Source: an uncultured delta proteobacterium (GTDB lineage Bacteria > Desulfobacterota > RBG-13-43-22). From it: 64,000 nt of DNA. The notes beneath the pieces were generated by a model, which worked only from the letters and a program-made list of their open reading frames with translations, had not been told where the DNA came from and searched no databases. Positions 29,289-36,711 of this stretch are shown one piece after another. Position 1 is the stretch's first letter, and every line of letters begins with the position of its first letter. Location: contig CAWDKY010000017.1 of assembly GCA_963802945.1 (NCBI GenBank), forward strand, positions 447,896 to 511,895, written 5' to 3'. A program made the position numbers and the translations under genes.

Positions 29289-31695
29289 TTAAACATCCCC
29301 ATACCGCATGTCAGGCCACTTGGTGCTTCCCCCTTCAAAAAGAACGGTAAAGACCTGGTCGGGATCGGTGCTCTCCTGAACATTAGGCAGATCCAGTCCG
29401 CCGACCCCGGTCGGTACATAGAAGGTGAAATCCAAAGGTTTCATACGGCCCTCACGCACTGCCTCCACATACTTCTGAGGCCCCTTGGTGTTGGGAAGCC
29501 CGGGGACTCTGCCGATAAATTTCCGATCATTTTGTCTGTGGTCGGCAAAGGCGCAAACCGCACCATATAGGCAGGCAATTCCAACTCTGTCTGGATATCT
29601 ATATCCAAAGATCATTTGCTTAAGATAACGATCATAGGCCAGTGAATAGCTGGGCCATTTCCCTTTGCCCCACATCAGGCCGGGAACGTAAGGGTCTTCC
29701 TGCTCGACCGGTGAAAAGGACATGAGCTGGGCCACACCGCAGACCCAGCCATAAATTTGTTCTCTGGTGATGTGATGACCTTCCAGGTTCCACCTGGGAT
29801 TGGAACATCGAAGGGAAGTGGACAACAAGGCATAAGCGGCCCGGAAGGTCTCCGATTCATCCTTTTCCGCCCGGAGACTAAGCCTGAGTCCGCCCAAAAA
29901 CATGGTTGTCCCATAAAGCCCTTTCTTTCCGTATTCTTCGTAAGTTACAATGCCGTTGCCGTCTTCGTCGAAGGCGTCGAGAAAACTTTTTTTCAAAGAC
30001 GCTCCTTGAAGTTGGTCCACAGCATCCAGATAGGCAAAAAAGGTTTTTTGCATATCCCAGGGTATCTTTTGAGCGTCGGAATACAAGGCCGTTGTGACAA
30101 TCTCTCTGAAGTTATCGCCATTCAGATACCCAAGCCTTCCTCGAAAAGAGGCCAGGGAATGACCGGTGATATCATCGCGCCCGATCACATAATACTGGCG
30201 CTGTCCCAAGCCGCGTTTTTCCGCCCGCCGGAAACTGAAATCCCGGCTCAAAGGACAGTCATATCCCTTAGTGGTAATGATGGCCTTATCTTGGAGCAAG
30301 GGAACCGGAACCGCCTGTGGGAAGCGGCCTCCTGACCCGTCGTCCAACCCTGCTTCTTCCGATTCCTTTAGGCCGCAATTGCTGAATATATAGCGGGCGC
30401 AGAACAGATCGGTGGCCACCGGATCCAATCCCGCTACCGCCAGTCCTTCACGCTCCTTGATGCCCAAACCTATTCCTGTGTGATCCCGGTTTGTTGCTTC
30501 CAAGCCATCGACAATGTGCATCATGAAAATATCTTGGTTAGCTACGGCCTTGATAATATCGAGCATGGTGCCTGTCAGTCCACCGGTTTTTTTCACCCGA
30601 TAGGTCCCATCGAGATTTTTTATTGGGATGCTGGTCACTCGGGTCTAGTTCAGGGATCCATACCTGATGTGGAATGGCGCCCTTCATGCCCGGGACTTTC
30701 ATCTTTGGCGGTGTGGCATATTCCCATTGGCAATCATTCGATCGGGATACTTCCATGGGATAGAGCCCAATGCCCAGATTCTTGATCACATTGGTGAAAA
30801 GGGCCTGGGCATGAATCTTTAATTTTGGAAGGTTGATCAGAATGCACCCTGGATAAAGGGCCCGATCATCCGGATCGGACGGATCACCGCCCACAATAAC
30901 CTTATGGAGGATGATAGACTCGAAATTTTCGTGGACTGGGACAGGGATATCTCTTCCTTTGGACATGTCGTCACAGATCCGGTTCAGGTCATAGACCATC
31001 AATTTATCTTGGACCTTTCCAGGGGGCAGATAAGTCCCGGCCATGCTTTCTTCCAACCCTCTCATCGGATCATCCCTTCTGGGGGAATCGGAGACTTCGG
31101 AAAGGTACTTGCGGACGAAATAGAATCCATAGCCGCCGAAAAAATCATCGGACTGGCCTTCAATGACTGCCTCGGTGGTCACGGGTCGTCCGGCCTTCTT
31201 AAGATGCTGAAAGCCGGCGGCCATGGCCGACAGTGCCGTGGCTGCTTCGCCGATGCTCATCTGATAGTAGCTGATGCCTGCTTGGTCGTGAAACCATCTC
31301 ATCACGGCGGCAACAAAGGCCCATTCCGTAACGGCCGTGCTGCCAATACTGGGTCCGAAGGTGTAGGGTTCAAAGCTCTCGACAGATACCAGGTTCGGTT
31401 TGAAGAGCAGCTTCTGCCCCTTCTTGAGCCTTTCTCTGATCTGGGAAAGGAAAGGTGTCTCCTGTTCCAGAGCGAACAAGGCCTCCCCCAGATTTTCATA
31501 CATATAATTGATCTTGGTTTTGATCTCCTTCCAGGCCGCCCCATCGGAGTCACGAATGACTTTTTGAAGCAGGAGCCCTATCCCTCCGTAGGCCTTATCG
31601 ACATCCATCCGGCTGACGGCTATAGCAGCACCGTTTCTATCTAACATCCCGTCGCCTATAGCCGTATGCACCATGACTTCTTTGACCTTATTCAT
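29289..31695 (-). pseudogene. Large DUF362-like protein split by a +1 frameshift near 30640
   Basis: LFKPNLV, INLPKLKIHAQALFTNVIKNLGIG, HIVDG, GLDPVATD. The frames join by removing one base (ELDP-VTSIP). Confidence 0.75.
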
Positions 31696-33169: not shown

Positions 33170-33517
33170 AATGTCAACCTCCCTTACTAGATGGGTATTA
33201 CTATTAGGTTGTGTTAGTGATAAAAAAAACTGCCTTATTAAAGAAACCGCCTAAGAATAACTTTTTTGATGAATGAATATAAAATACAGGGCCAATAAGG
33301 GTCAAGAAGAAAAAAGGCTTCCCCTTTTGGGGGATCTCTGTTCTGAGGCTACCCATTAAAAATGTTCGACTTTGAGGTCTTTATTGACTAAGCTGATAAA
33401 TTTCGTTATGATCCAACACGAATAGCAACCAACCAAAGATATCGCTTTCCTGTCGCCATAACCTGTGGTGCAGGATACTGTATAATCCATAACTATGACT
33501 CAGGGAAGGGGGGTTTC

Positions 33518-34885
33518 ATGGGAAAAAAAATCCTCATCGTGGATGACGAAGAGAGAATTATTAAATCCATCACCGGGGTTCTTGAAGATGAAGGGTTTGA
33601 CGTCATCCCAGCCAAAAACGGTGAGGAGGCTATCGATCTTTTCAGACAAGAACTCCCTCTGGTAACGCTCCTCGATATCTGGATGCCGGGGATGGACGGG
33701 ATCGAGGTACTGAAGCGGATGAAATGGATTGCCCCGGATTGCCGGGTGGTTATGATCTCCGGCCATGCTACGATATCCACGGCCATGGCTGCTGTAAAAC
33801 TTGGTGCCTTTGATTTTATTGAAAAACCCCTGTCCATAGACGTTCTTCTTAAAACGGTTTTCAGGGCCATCAGTTACCAGGAAGATCTTCTCTCGATCCA
33901 AAAGTCCGTGGAAATCGGCACCCAGGAAAATCCCCTCACAGAAAGATTAAAATCTTTCGAAAACTCCTATGAAGACATCGACGGACTTCCCCTCTCCTCT
34001 ATTCAGGAATCCGCCTTTTTAATAAAAAAAACAACCAAGGGAAAAGAAGGTTTTTTCCCTCTTCAGCGAACCCTTGCAAAAAGTAAGGTCCTTTACGGAA
34101 CTGGACTCCATTCCGGCATGAAAACCGGTTTGCTGTTACAGCCCCTTCCCCCAAACCGGGGGATTCTCTTTGGAAACGTTTCTTCCGACGATGTTGTTCC
34201 CTTGCACGTCGACTATGTTCATACAACGGAAATGGCCACTTCACTGAAAAAAGGGATGGCCGTCGCCAAAACCATCGAACACCTCATGGCCGTGTTTCAT
34301 GCCTATCGGATCACGAACCTGATGGTGAAAATGATTCAAGAGGTTCCGGTCATGGACGGGTCGGCCCTGGAGTTCTGTAAGTTGATTGAAGAGGCCGGGG
34401 TGGAGGAACAGGAAGAAAGGGCGGAAGAACTGATTATTGACCGGCGGTTGGAGATAAGCAATGGGGAAAAATCTCTGGTCATTGAGCCGGCCGAGGTGTT
34501 TTCCGTCAGTTATTTCCTGGATTATCCCCCGCCCATTGGGCAGCAGACGTTTGATTTCACTCTGGATAGTCCGGCAGAATTTAAGAAAAATATCGCACCG
34601 GCTCGGACCTTTGGTTTCCTCAAGGACTTGGAGATGTTAGACCGCTTGGGTTTGGGAGAAGGAGGCTGGATCAAAAATGTCATCATGGTCGATGATGAAA
34701 AAATTATCAATACCGAACTCCGGTTTCCGGATGAATTTGCCCGTCACAAAATCCTGGATCTGATCGGAGATTTCTATCTGCTCAACCGGCCGATCAAAGG
34801 CAAAGTCACGGCTTGCCGTACCGGTCACACCGACAATATTTGCATGATGAAAAAAATCCTGGAGGAAACGAAAATCAGCCATTGA
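33518..34885 (+). CDS. lpxC: Response-regulator receiver domain fused to UDP-3-O-acyl-GlcNAc deacetylase LpxC
   Basis: REC: IVDDE, LLDIWMPGMDG, ISGH, FIEKP. LpxC: QRTL, GTGLHSG, TIEHLMA, EVPVMDGSA, APARTFGF, DEFARHKILDLIGD, GH. Confidence 0.92.
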   Translation: MGKKILIVDDEERIIKSITGVLEDEGFDVIPAKNGEEAIDLFRQELPLVTLLDIWMPGMDGIEVLKRMKWIAPDCRVVMISGHATISTAMAAVKLGAFDFIEKPLSIDVLLKTVFRAISYQEDLLSIQKSVEIGTQENPLTERLKSFENSYEDIDGLPLSSIQESAFLIKKTTKGKEGFFPLQRTLAKSKVLYGTGLHSGMKTGLLLQPLPPNRGILFGNVSSDDVVPLHVDYVHTTEMATSLKKGMAVAKTIEHLMAVFHAYRITNLMVKMIQEVPVMDGSALEFCKLIEEAGVEEQEERAEELIIDRRLEISNGEKSLVIEPAEVFSVSYFLDYPPPIGQQTFDFTLDSPAEFKKNIAPARTFGFLKDLEMLDRLGLGEGGWIKNVIMVDDEKIINTELRFPDEFARHKILDLIGDFYLLNRPIKGKVTACRTGHTDNICMMKKILEETKISH

Positions 34886-34929
34886 TTCTAAAATGACCTT
34901 TTTCGGTCTCGGTTTACGGCTTATAGTTT

Positions 34930-36453
34930 TCAGCTCCTTTTTTCAATGGCCACAATAAGGTTTCTGAAAATAAAATGATGAAAAGGCAGAAAAATATACC
35001 AATAGAATTTCCCGAATAGGGTATACGTGTCATAATAAGTGACTACCGACAATCTTCTTTGTGCCCCTTCATCTCGAATTTGAAATTCAAGCCAGGCTTT
35101 CCCCGGCAATTTCATCTCGGCCCGCAAAAGAAGTCTTTCGTCCTGTATAAGATCTTCAACCCGCCAGAAGTCAACCACATCATTGATCTCCAAAGAAAAA
35201 GGACTTTTTCTCCCTCGAATCGAACCTACCCCAAGTAAGATTCGATCCAGCATGCCTCGGATTCTCCAGATCCAATTACTGTGAAACCAACCCTCTTTGC
35301 CTCCGATGCTGCAGATCGACTGAAAAAGGGCAGCAGATCCTTTTTCGGTGAGTAGAGAATATCGGGCTATATAGGCCGTCGCTTGCCCGCGAAGCTCGTG
35401 AAGTTCGTGCAGCTTTAGGGCCAGGACATGGGCCGGAGGATAGGAATCGGACCAGCGGGTATGCACCCGATCCTGTTCCTCTCGTGACATGGCTCTTATA
35501 ATGGCCTCTCGATATGAAATCGGTTCAAAAGGAATCAATCTTCTAATCGAATCATCCTGAACGATGACTTCGTTTCTTAAGCTTTCCATCAGACATTTGG
35601 TTATCGTATTGGGAACAGGAGTGAGCAAGCTGACCAAGTAGGTATAAAATCGTAAATAGGAAAAAAAGGTCGGGATGAAAATAGTTTTGAAATGAAGAAT
35701 CCTGGCAAGAATTTTAAGCATCCGTTCATAGGTCAGAATGTCCGGACCACCGATATCGAAATCTCTACCGGAAGTTGCCGGCACTTCTAAACAACCGACC
35801 AGATATTTGATGACATCGCGGATACCGATGGGCTGGCAGCGATTTTTTGCCCAACGAGGGACAAAAATAATGGGTAATTTTTTAACCAGGTGTTGAATGA
35901 TCTCGTAAGAAGCGCTGCCCGAACCTATAATAATGGCTGCCCTCAGGACGGTTAAAGGCGTTTTCCCTTTTCGTAATTCTTCGGCAACAGCCATTCGGCC
36001 GCGAAGATGGGGGGAAAGGGGATTCCGGATGTCTCCAAGACCCCCCAGGTAAATGATTCTTTTAAGCCCTTTTTCCTCGGCAACTGTTCTAAAGGCAGAA
36101 GCTGCCTGAATATCGGCCAATTGAAACTCCCTGGGACCAAGACGCAGGGAATGAATCAAGTAGTAAGCCGTATCAATACCTTCAAAGGCCTGTCGGAGCT
36201 GATCGAGATTCGTTGCATCGGCAATGACTATTTCGGCCTTCGGCCAAAGACTCTGATTCGAGGCCGGAGCACCCCGGACCATCACTCTGACCAGATATCC
36301 CCTGGCCAATAATTCAGAAACCAAACGGCCTCCTATGTAGCCTGAGGCCCCGCTGACCAATATTTTGCCTGTTTCCGGTAAAGGCTTGGTGGGTAAATCA
36401 AAACAAAAAAATTCTTGACTGTCCTGGACAGGTAATTCTAGATAAGGTACCAT
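34930..36453 (-). CDS. NAD(P)-binding oxidoreductase with DUF2867 C-terminus (YbjT-like)
   Basis: GASGYIG, YYLIHS, IGSGSASYE, DFWRVE, AEMKLPGKAWLEF, PFHHFIF. Confidence 0.9.
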   Translation of the reverse strand: MVPYLELPVQDSQEFFCFDLPTKPLPETGKILVSGASGYIGGRLVSELLARGYLVRVMVRGAPASNQSLWPKAEIVIADATNLDQLRQAFEGIDTAYYLIHSLRLGPREFQLADIQAASAFRTVAEEKGLKRIIYLGGLGDIRNPLSPHLRGRMAVAEELRKGKTPLTVLRAAIIIGSGSASYEIIQHLVKKLPIIFVPRWAKNRCQPIGIRDVIKYLVGCLEVPATSGRDFDIGGPDILTYERMLKILARILHFKTIFIPTFFSYLRFYTYLVSLLTPVPNTITKCLMESLRNEVIVQDDSIRRLIPFEPISYREAIIRAMSREEQDRVHTRWSDSYPPAHVLALKLHELHELRGQATAYIARYSLLTEKGSAALFQSICSIGGKEGWFHSNWIWRIRGMLDRILLGVGSIRGRKSPFSLEINDVVDFWRVEDLIQDERLLLRAEMKLPGKAWLEFQIRDEGAQRRLSVVTYYDTYTLFGKFYWYIFLPFHHFIFRNLIVAIEKRS

Positions 36454-36492: not shown

Positions 36493-36711
36493 ATGGCCAC
36501 ATACGACGCCAGGCGTGAAAGATGTCCGAACGTCGAAGAAAACAAAAAACGTTGCAATTGTAGTTATGATCCTTGTGAACGAAAAGGATTATGTTGTCAA
36601 TGTATCCATTATCATCGCGCCAACGGTGAACTGCCGGCCTGTTATTTTTCGAAGGCCGTGGAGAAGACCTATGATCGGTCCATCAGCCGGTTTATTCAAA
36701 GCCGTAAGTAG
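36493..36711 (+). CDS. Small Cys-rich protein (DUF6485-like)
   Basis: [39 protein letters not shown]....EKTYDRS. Confidence 0.8.

Follow-up and report, generated by a model that had tools for sequence, protein, structure and literature searches.

Does a response-regulator receiver that is joined to LpxC place lipid A synthesis under the control of a sensor kinase and, if so, which kinase would set it? The question is raised by a gene in a 64,000-nucleotide stretch of DNA (hereafter the window) from an uncultured delta proteobacterium of the Desulfobacterota (GenBank assembly GCA_963802945.1, contig CAWDKY010000017.1, forward-strand positions 447,896 to 511,895). The gene is a single open reading frame (ORF) of 455 aa with an ATG start, in which an N-terminal receiver (REC) domain precedes LpxC, whose deacetylation of UDP-3-O-acyl-GlcNAc commits this substrate to lipid A. 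Control of lipid A synthesis centres on this enzyme, which has long been an antibiotic target. The reading favoured here, with moderate confidence, is that a receiver derived from NtrX sits on the only LpxC of the cell, and that an NtrY-like kinase sets the phosphorylation of this receiver and by that means tunes LpxC output.

The fused gene and its two domains

Two Pfam matches were found in the protein, PF00072 (Response_reg) at residues 5-114 (E 6.5e-28, 97.6 bits) and PF03331 (LpxC) at residues 183-448, the latter covering profile positions 1-267 of 268 (E 5.4e-82, 275.7 bits; cut-off 27 bits). The ORF also passed the NCBIfam lpxC equivalog TIGR00325 (239.1 bits against a cut-off of 187.25). 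Its best NCBIfam receiver match was NtrX (NF051870), at 118.5 bits and far under the whole-protein cut-off of 600, and the 455-aa protein gave no Pfam match to Sigma54_activat, AAA_lid or HTH_8. An initial annotation of the window, made from the letters and an ORF list, had described one uninterrupted ORF holding a complete receiver, a linker of about 60 aa and a full LpxC with its Zn ligands and catalytic His. Each part of this description held: D9-D10, D53 within LLDIWMP, S81 within ISGH, K103-P104, E254-H255, H410-K411..D414 and H437 are all in place, and the linker runs from about residue 120 to 182.

The fusion was found to be genuine. Both Pfam domains are carried by all of the 120 best database relatives (69-100% identity), and a full-length or near full-length fused gene was recovered from 12 of the 13 other genomes of the genus (among 40 related genomes); in G011 the gene is interrupted by a contig end. 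An independent metagenome contig covers window positions 33550-34916 without insertion or deletion (37 differences over 1367 bases; run X2), and contigs of independent peat-metagenome runs likewise span the gene without insertion or deletion. Misassembly and absence from relatives, which the initial annotation had named as grounds for dropping the idea, are refuted by these two-domain relatives, by the genus genomes and by the indel-free contig. The closest public holders of window positions 33300-35000 were peat, wetland and soil metagenome runs, with contigs 90-99% alike. In one related genome (G003:C48:24931-26296) the fused gene occupies two frames, with the break close to the C-terminus.

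The LpxC part was aligned with the solved Pseudomonas aeruginosa enzyme (E about 1e-52), with the EH, HKxxD, GH and TF motifs in register and with H255, H410, D414, E254, H437, T364, K411 and D418 all matched. From the Escherichia coli and P. aeruginosa enzymes, we take H255, H410 and D414 to be the Zn ligands, E254 the general base and H437 a further catalytic residue. E254, H255, H410, K411, D414, D418 and H437 show no variation among the 74 fused and the 101 stand-alone LpxC domains, and residue 364 is T in 71 and S in 3 of the fused set. Within the whole genome, rated 100% complete, the fused gene was the one PF03331 match, so that the stand-alone lpxC for which the initial annotation had advised a search is absent. 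Because this is the sole match and LpxA, LpxB and LpxK are present, the fusion must, as judged from sequence, supply LpxC activity and act as the LpxC of the cell in lipid A synthesis. The LpxB match itself (G000:C15:316948-318055) is split: a 65-aa frame holds profile positions 1-47 and a 337-aa frame holds 52-370, which could be a frameshift or an assembly error.

The spread of the fusion was surveyed in an even sample of 151 genomes of the phylum with a completeness of 85% or more, of which 145 gave an LpxC match above the cut-off. Receiver-LpxC fusions were present in 37 of the 151, belonging to 16 of the 73 sampled families; 27 were short forms and 10 were long forms, which hold an AAA+ region ahead of LpxC. 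These were verified at 8 of the related-genome loci and at 29 of 30 further fetched loci. The thirtieth, a 514-aa frame in G145, was rejected as a fusion since it has no receiver, and frames of 1000-1400 aa in G093, G124 and G154, which had looked like kinase-regulator-LpxC triple fusions, were rejected as stop-to-stop frames that overlap the upstream kinase gene in a different frame. The fusion was the only LpxC match in 36 of the 37 genomes that bear it; as the sole LpxC of 36 of the 151 sampled genomes, it is not rare. By record titles and the NCBI ranks derived from them, fusion records are labelled Thermodesulfobacteriota (Syntrophorhabdus, Syntrophobacteraceae), Binatota, Acidobacteriota, Nitrospinota, Myxococcota and Pseudomonadota. 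A second, divergent receiver-LpxC clade was also seen (L014 in G017, L021 in G008 and L164 in G053; 38-45% identity to the window protein); another LpxC is encoded in the same genomes, and the clade groups with two short-fusion and two apparently receiver-less representatives.

In the LpxC tree, the fused side comprised 82 rows (51 short, 18 long, 5 N-terminally cut and 8 receiver-less, these last probably fragments or basal) and the opposite side 93 rows, all stand-alone. Stand-alone enzymes from the same family and genus sit in the stand-alone half, at 34-42% identity to the window enzyme. Six columns are conserved in the fused forms only (G204, Y263, K271, C287, E323 and L390), and at position 271 the fused enzymes have K where most stand-alone enzymes have E. 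The separate branch, together with PF03331 scores of 223-295 bits against mostly more than 295 for stand-alone enzymes and the retention of a stand-alone lpxC in two species of the genus, could indicate a neofunctionalised paralogue working outside lipid A synthesis. This is regarded as highly improbable given that the fusion is the only PF03331 match here and in nearly all of the fusion-bearing genomes of the phylum sample, that the other Lpx enzymes are encoded, and that the lpxC equivalog cut-off is passed with every catalytic residue kept.

Descent from an NtrX-type regulator

The phosphorylation site of the receiver is intact in the window protein and is conserved across the family: among 67 fused receivers, D9 is kept in 65, D10 in 66, D53 in 65, S81 (as S or T) in 67 and K103 in 66. 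Asp also stands at position 53 in all 64 rows of an NtrX-type alignment, the row of the window included. The domain was modelled by AlphaFold2 (AF2) with a predicted local distance difference test (pLDDT) value of about 90.

A tree of 170 receivers placed that of the window in a clade of 123 rows with 95% support. The clade consists of 63 regulators encoded next to NtrY-like kinases, 33 short and 18 long fusions, and 9 other NtrC-type rows, most of them from loci without a kinase within the scored stretch. None of the 24 other receivers of this genome fell inside it. The other 16 fused rows form divergent long branches; they lie just beyond the edge of the clade and remain separate from the other receivers of this genome. 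Eight residues (I14, S17, L18, G20, D24, W55, H83 and E102), located on helix alpha-1 and around the active site, are common to fused and NtrX-type receivers and are not found in the other regulators of this genome. The receiver is accordingly assigned on sequence grounds to the NtrX lineage, and the NtrX/NtrC-type resemblance noted in the initial annotation is upheld by both the NCBIfam match and the clade.

Intermediates between a regulator and the window protein were present among representatives at 50% identity. Many are REC-AAA+-(HTH)-LpxC proteins of 650-736 aa, where HTH denotes a helix-turn-helix; two forms of 491-505 aa have a possible HTH remnant, shorter forms measure 440-483 aa, and minimal ones 419-427 aa. 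In G026, an NtrY-like kinase gene is followed after 12 nt by the gene of a 726-aa REC-Sigma54_activat-AAA_lid-LpxC protein, of which residues 5-436 are matched by the NtrX model. The 63 stand-alone regulators next to kinases keep Walker A in 60 cases, GAFTGA in 50, the Walker B DE pair in 60 and the arginine finger in 56, and by these motifs look like working sigma-54 activators; alphaproteobacterial NtrX, by contrast with these regulators of the present phylum, is not known to carry the GAFTGA motif. The 18 long fusions keep Walker A in 13, and GAFTGA, Walker B DE and the arginine finger in none. Judged by the scored motifs, of which Walker A alone persists, the AAA+ domain of the long fusions is dead.

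Short and long forms interleave in the LpxC tree, where well-supported branches force at least 7 changes of the label "short", as would be expected if the dead AAA+ and HTH parts were lost repeatedly. The receiver was always retained while these parts were lost. Between the two domains of the window protein, helix alpha-5 of the receiver is predicted to extend to residue 132, and residues 126-178 are predicted to be disordered (AF2 pLDDT below 50). Across the family the linker varies in both length (about 25 aa to about 330 aa) and sequence (alignment A1). No AAA+ or HTH relics were detectable by homology in the linker of the window protein; a weak alignment (E 1e-3 to 0.04) to the junction that precedes LpxC in long forms was confined to its last 25 or so residues.

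These forms lend good support to the origin proposed in the initial annotation, an ntrX-lpxC junction that lost its AAA+ and HTH parts, since the 650-736-aa intermediates exist and the short forms are nested among the long. A sigma-54-dependent regulator of the NtrX type would once have belonged to an lpxC-DUF4390-ntrY-ntrX cluster and would have become fused to LpxC in an ancestor; its AAA+ ATPase would then have decayed, the AAA+ and HTH parts would have been deleted in this lineage, and the gene would have moved away from the kinase. The family would in this way display, as fusion, ATPase decay, AAA+/HTH deletion and gene relocation, the stepwise conversion of a transcription factor to a direct enzyme regulator.

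Candidate kinase and proposed mode of control

The initial annotation had asked whether the genome holds an orphan NtrY-like kinase. One was found on contig C15 as a 771-aa ORF (G000:C15:106201-108516) with a DUF4390 partner gene at 108461-109057. The kinase has four membrane-like segments and an extracytoplasmic loop of about 185 aa followed by HAMP-PAS-HisKA-HATPase, and the DUF4390 protein is exported and of the PlrP type. An NAD kinase gene follows that of the NtrY-like kinase, no regulator lies beside the latter, and tblastn found no lpxC or ntrX remnant near it (no match with E below 0.1). The first 28 codons of the kinase ORF, which opens with TTG, are probably untranslated and the true start is probably the Met at residue 29, because most relatives in the genus have TAG there and ORFs of 743 aa.

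A match to the N-terminal sensor half of the NtrY-like kinase was obtained from 39 of 41 related genomes, and nearly all of them gave one strong match. Many of these relatives (e.g. G022, G014, G017-G020, G027 and G032) have a cluster of lpxC, DUF4390, kinase and regulator genes, which is the ancestral arrangement. In G022 (L016:8240-10078) a gene for a Ser/Thr protein kinase that has PEGA domains comes after this cluster. In two species of the genus (G006 and G009), the fusion coexists with a stand-alone lpxC located upstream of DUF4390, and it is this stand-alone gene that the present genome has lost. In-frame stops divide the NtrY-like kinase of G009, which keeps both forms of lpxC, into two ORFs (G009:C8:43595-44885).

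A complementary pattern of fusion and regulator was scored at 38 fetched kinase loci. A REC-AAA-HTH regulator lies immediately downstream of the kinase at 17 of them, and 16 of these 17 genomes are without the fusion; 16 fusion-bearing genomes have no such regulator downstream. In G026 the fusion itself occupies the place of the regulator, and the G028 locus is interrupted by a contig end. A short fusion stands 0-86 nt downstream of the kinase in seven named loci of other lineages and 373 nt downstream in an eighth, and the kinase is directly upstream of the fusion in 8 of the 29 further fetched loci. Where the fusion has replaced NtrX, the kinase and DUF4390 genes are intact and single-copy. 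The partner of REC-LpxC is, on this comparative evidence, most likely the NtrY-like histidine kinase on C15. Phosphorylation by some other donor, whether a different kinase or acetyl phosphate, is considered very unlikely: the kinase and fusion genes are unlinked here and many other kinases are encoded in the genome, yet the receiver falls in the NtrX clade with the common alpha-1 signature, in many relatives the fusion directly follows the kinase, in the position of ntrX, and the C15 kinase has no other partner nearby.

According to the favoured reading, the kinase/phosphatase on C15 would read an envelope or periplasmic cue and set the phosphorylation state of Asp53, and the receiver, phosphorylated or not, would change LpxC output from the end of a flexible tether. 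We infer both phosphotransfer from the C15 kinase to Asp53 and an effect of phosphorylation on LpxC output. The most likely way would be a contact between the receiver and LpxC domains that is made or broken, as in CheB; receiver dimerisation or altered stability would be other ways. Docking of a tethered, CheB-like kind is favoured by the retention of the receiver on linkers of about 25 to about 330 aa, by the columns conserved in fused LpxC only, and by the AF2 model of the protein, which has a predicted template modelling (pTM) score of 0.77 despite 55 disordered residues. Because the LpxC domain alone would, by a rough estimate, give a pTM of about 0.6, the model hints that the receiver is placed with some confidence relative to LpxC. 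Lipid A flux would be tuned post-translationally and not through lpxC transcription, which suggests that a membrane sensor kinase directly controls outer-membrane synthesis at the protein level.

The receiver could instead resemble RssB in acting as a regulated degron or as a site for an adaptor, and set the half-life of LpxC through FtsH, Lon or ClpXP, a possibility judged unlikely. According to the available text of a recent review, LpxC is under proteolytic control by FtsH/LapB in E. coli and, in some alphaproteobacteria, possibly by Lon (PMC12444477). The predicted disordered linker could be a site of protease engagement, and with no LapB orthologue found in this genome (see below) another turnover route would be needed; against phospho-dependent proteolysis, no protease or adaptor is linked to the gene here or in relatives, and nothing specific to a degron was found in the sequence.

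Several observations count against control of LpxC by the C15 kinase through the receiver. The disordered and unconserved linker means that there is no fixed structural coupling element. E87 and K109 are conserved in stand-alone NtrX-type regulators and variable in fusions, so the signalling face of fused receivers may be changed or decaying. The complementary pattern is imperfect, because G013, G016 and G036 have neither a fusion nor a regulator beside the kinase and G017 has both a regulator there and a divergent fusion paralogue, and its counts overstate independence because the genomes are related and represent a handful of events, not 38. As the kinase and fusion lie on different contigs in this genome, their pairing rests on phylogeny and on relatives. 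The branch dividing fused from stand-alone LpxC has 88% support in the Shimodaira-Hasegawa-like approximate likelihood ratio test (SH-aLRT), so the split is not decisive. No RNA run holding the gene was listed among the public runs. A sole LpxC, moreover, could not be switched fully off for long, which limits the strength of any control.

Some of these points would also suit a receiver that is silent toward LpxC: it could be a remnant, help the protein to fold or stay soluble, or act as a sink for phosphate from the kinase, with LpxC constitutive. The variable, disordered linker and the relaxation of E87 and K109 on the alpha4/alpha5 face relative to NtrX agree with this, as does the decayed AAA+ of the long forms, by which decay is known to occur in the family. 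It is nonetheless thought improbable, since 65-67 of 67 fused receivers, drawn from several phyla, retain the phospho-acceptor pocket, the kinase-facing alpha-1 signature persists, and the kinase and DUF4390 genes stay intact and single-copy where the fusion replaced NtrX. The repeated loss of AAA+ and HTH with the receiver always kept, and the six fused-only LpxC columns, including K271 in place of the stand-alone E, also speak against silence.

Read as a Rosetta stone, the receiver-LpxC fusion would indicate that the NtrYX family, for which alphaproteobacteria offer an indirect link to lpxC expression and the envelope, is functionally coupled to LpxC. It is proposed, as a tentative extension of the receiver-controlled reading, that DUF4390, the NtrY-like kinase and REC-LpxC may form a self-contained envelope-homeostasis circuit, replacing sigma-54 transcriptional and LapB/FtsH-type control of lpxC in about a quarter of the sampled species of the phylum and in other phyla. 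Signal-to-flux control could be rebuilt in vitro from this simple set of a single kinase, a single periplasmic helper and a single enzyme.

Locus features and comparison with known systems

The coordinates of the gene and its parts are given in Table 1. No convincing sigma-54 promoter was recognised by eye upstream of the gene, and no scan was made for one. The neighbours are an acyl-CoA dehydrogenase gene and an NmrA/DUF2867 gene, both on the opposite strand and unrelated, in agreement with the earlier statement that no kinase gene is adjacent. Elsewhere in the window, two same-strand ORFs at 29289-31695 (-) overlap by about 100 nt (449 aa without a Pfam match and 385 aa with a weak DUF362 match) and may be two genes or one frameshifted gene. 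A small Cys-rich ORF of 72 aa lies at 36493-36711 (+) and has a DUF6485 match (E 2e-8).

Table 1. Positions, in window coordinates, of the receiver-LpxC gene, its parts and its candidate expression signals
Feature	Position	Strand	Basis and remarks
Candidate sigma-70-type promoter (TTGACT, 17-nt spacer, TATGAT)	33384..33412	+	About 105 nt 5' of the start codon; 10/12 consensus positions, consensus match only
Shine-Dalgarno-like purine-rich stretch	33502..33513	+	4 nt 5' of the ATG; sequence read directly
Whole REC-linker-LpxC gene (455 codons + stop)	33518..34885	+	ORF listing, Pfam, NCBIfam, relatives
NtrX-type receiver domain (residues 1-120)	33518..33877	+	PF00072 match, NtrX clade, AF2 pLDDT about 90
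Asp53 codon (predicted phospho-acceptor)	33674..33676	+	Place in LLDIWMP motif, conservation
Linker (residues 121-182)	33878..34063	+	Alignment and AF2 pLDDT; variable, predicted disordered
LpxC domain (residues 183-455)	34064..34882	+	Pfam, NCBIfam, alignment to solved LpxC

The initial annotation knew of no characterised regulation of this mode, and a full-text search, whose coverage leaves out most subscription-journal papers, likewise found no description of a receiver-LpxC or NtrX-LpxC fusion; the REC + LpxC architecture is visible in public domain annotations. The available text of a review from 2025 on how lipid A is regulated treats proteolysis and transcription as the forms of LpxC control, and contains neither the word "fusion" nor the word "receiver" (PMC12444477).

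The LpxC controlled by FtsH and LapB (YciM) in E. coli is the same enzyme, shares its catalytic residues and likewise has to keep lipid A synthesis in balance. The control proposed here differs in that it would come from a fused receiver and not from adaptor-mediated proteolysis. No LapB orthologue was found in the genome (best match to NF008757 33.7 bits against a cut-off of 363); the single genome match to PF18073 (Zn_ribbon_LapB) was rejected as LapB, as it lies in RadA. The bifunctional LpxC-FabZ (NF009667) is another natural fusion of LpxC to a second domain, with a C-terminal dehydratase as partner where the present protein has an N-terminal signalling domain; a C-terminal FabZ was not found here, the NF009667 score being 199.3 bits against a cut-off of 465 with the LpxC part alone matched.

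Closer in regulatory logic is DVU2934 of Desulfovibrio vulgaris, an NtrC-type regulator for which lpxC is reported, in the part of the source available, as the single mapped target (PMC3333781). It thus offers a sigma-54-type two-component regulator dedicated to lpxC in the same broad bacterial group, although control there is transcriptional and exerted by separate proteins. In Syntrophobacter fumaroxidans, according to the same source, the operon of the orthologous regulator has lpxC directly upstream of it (PMC3333781), an arrangement that matches the lpxC-DUF4390-kinase-regulator clusters of the relatives.

The NtrY/NtrX systems, including PlrP(DUF4390)-PlrS-PlrR of Bordetella, share the receiver clade with the fusion, and the genome keeps the pair of DUF4390 and NtrY-like kinase. 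In the excerpt available, DUF4390 (PlrP) is presented as the periplasmic third component of an NtrYX-family system and is proposed to restrain the phosphatase activity of PlrS (PMC13001219). In alphaproteobacteria, links of NtrYX to the cell envelope and to the amount of lpxC transcript are already on record: from the portions available, it affects transcript levels in Rhodobacter sphaeroides and Caulobacter (PMC12444477, PMC7240162), and its loss raises them in R. sphaeroides, probably indirectly (PMC7240162; review PMC12444477). The fusion differs in being without an AAA+ or DNA-binding domain, so that its output is an enzyme and not transcription; its score of 118.5 bits is correspondingly remote from the NtrX equivalog cut-off. 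The window gene is also not adjacent to the kinase, whereas such adjacency is found in relatives.

In architecture, REC-LpxC matches CheB and the other regulators with enzymatic output (PleD/WspR, RpfG and RssB), which likewise have an N-terminal receiver, a linker and a C-terminal catalytic domain, and by analogy the common logic would be expected to be that receiver phosphorylation changes enzyme output. It differs from them in its long, disordered and unconserved linker and in its output, a housekeeping biosynthetic enzyme that catalyses a committed step and has no second copy in the cell. If the proposed self-contained circuit is real, this would be the first two-component system with an essential lipid-biosynthetic enzyme as its output. 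From its sequence, REC-LpxC is best described as a putative response regulator with enzymatic output, the novelty being that this output is the enzyme of the committed step in making lipid A.

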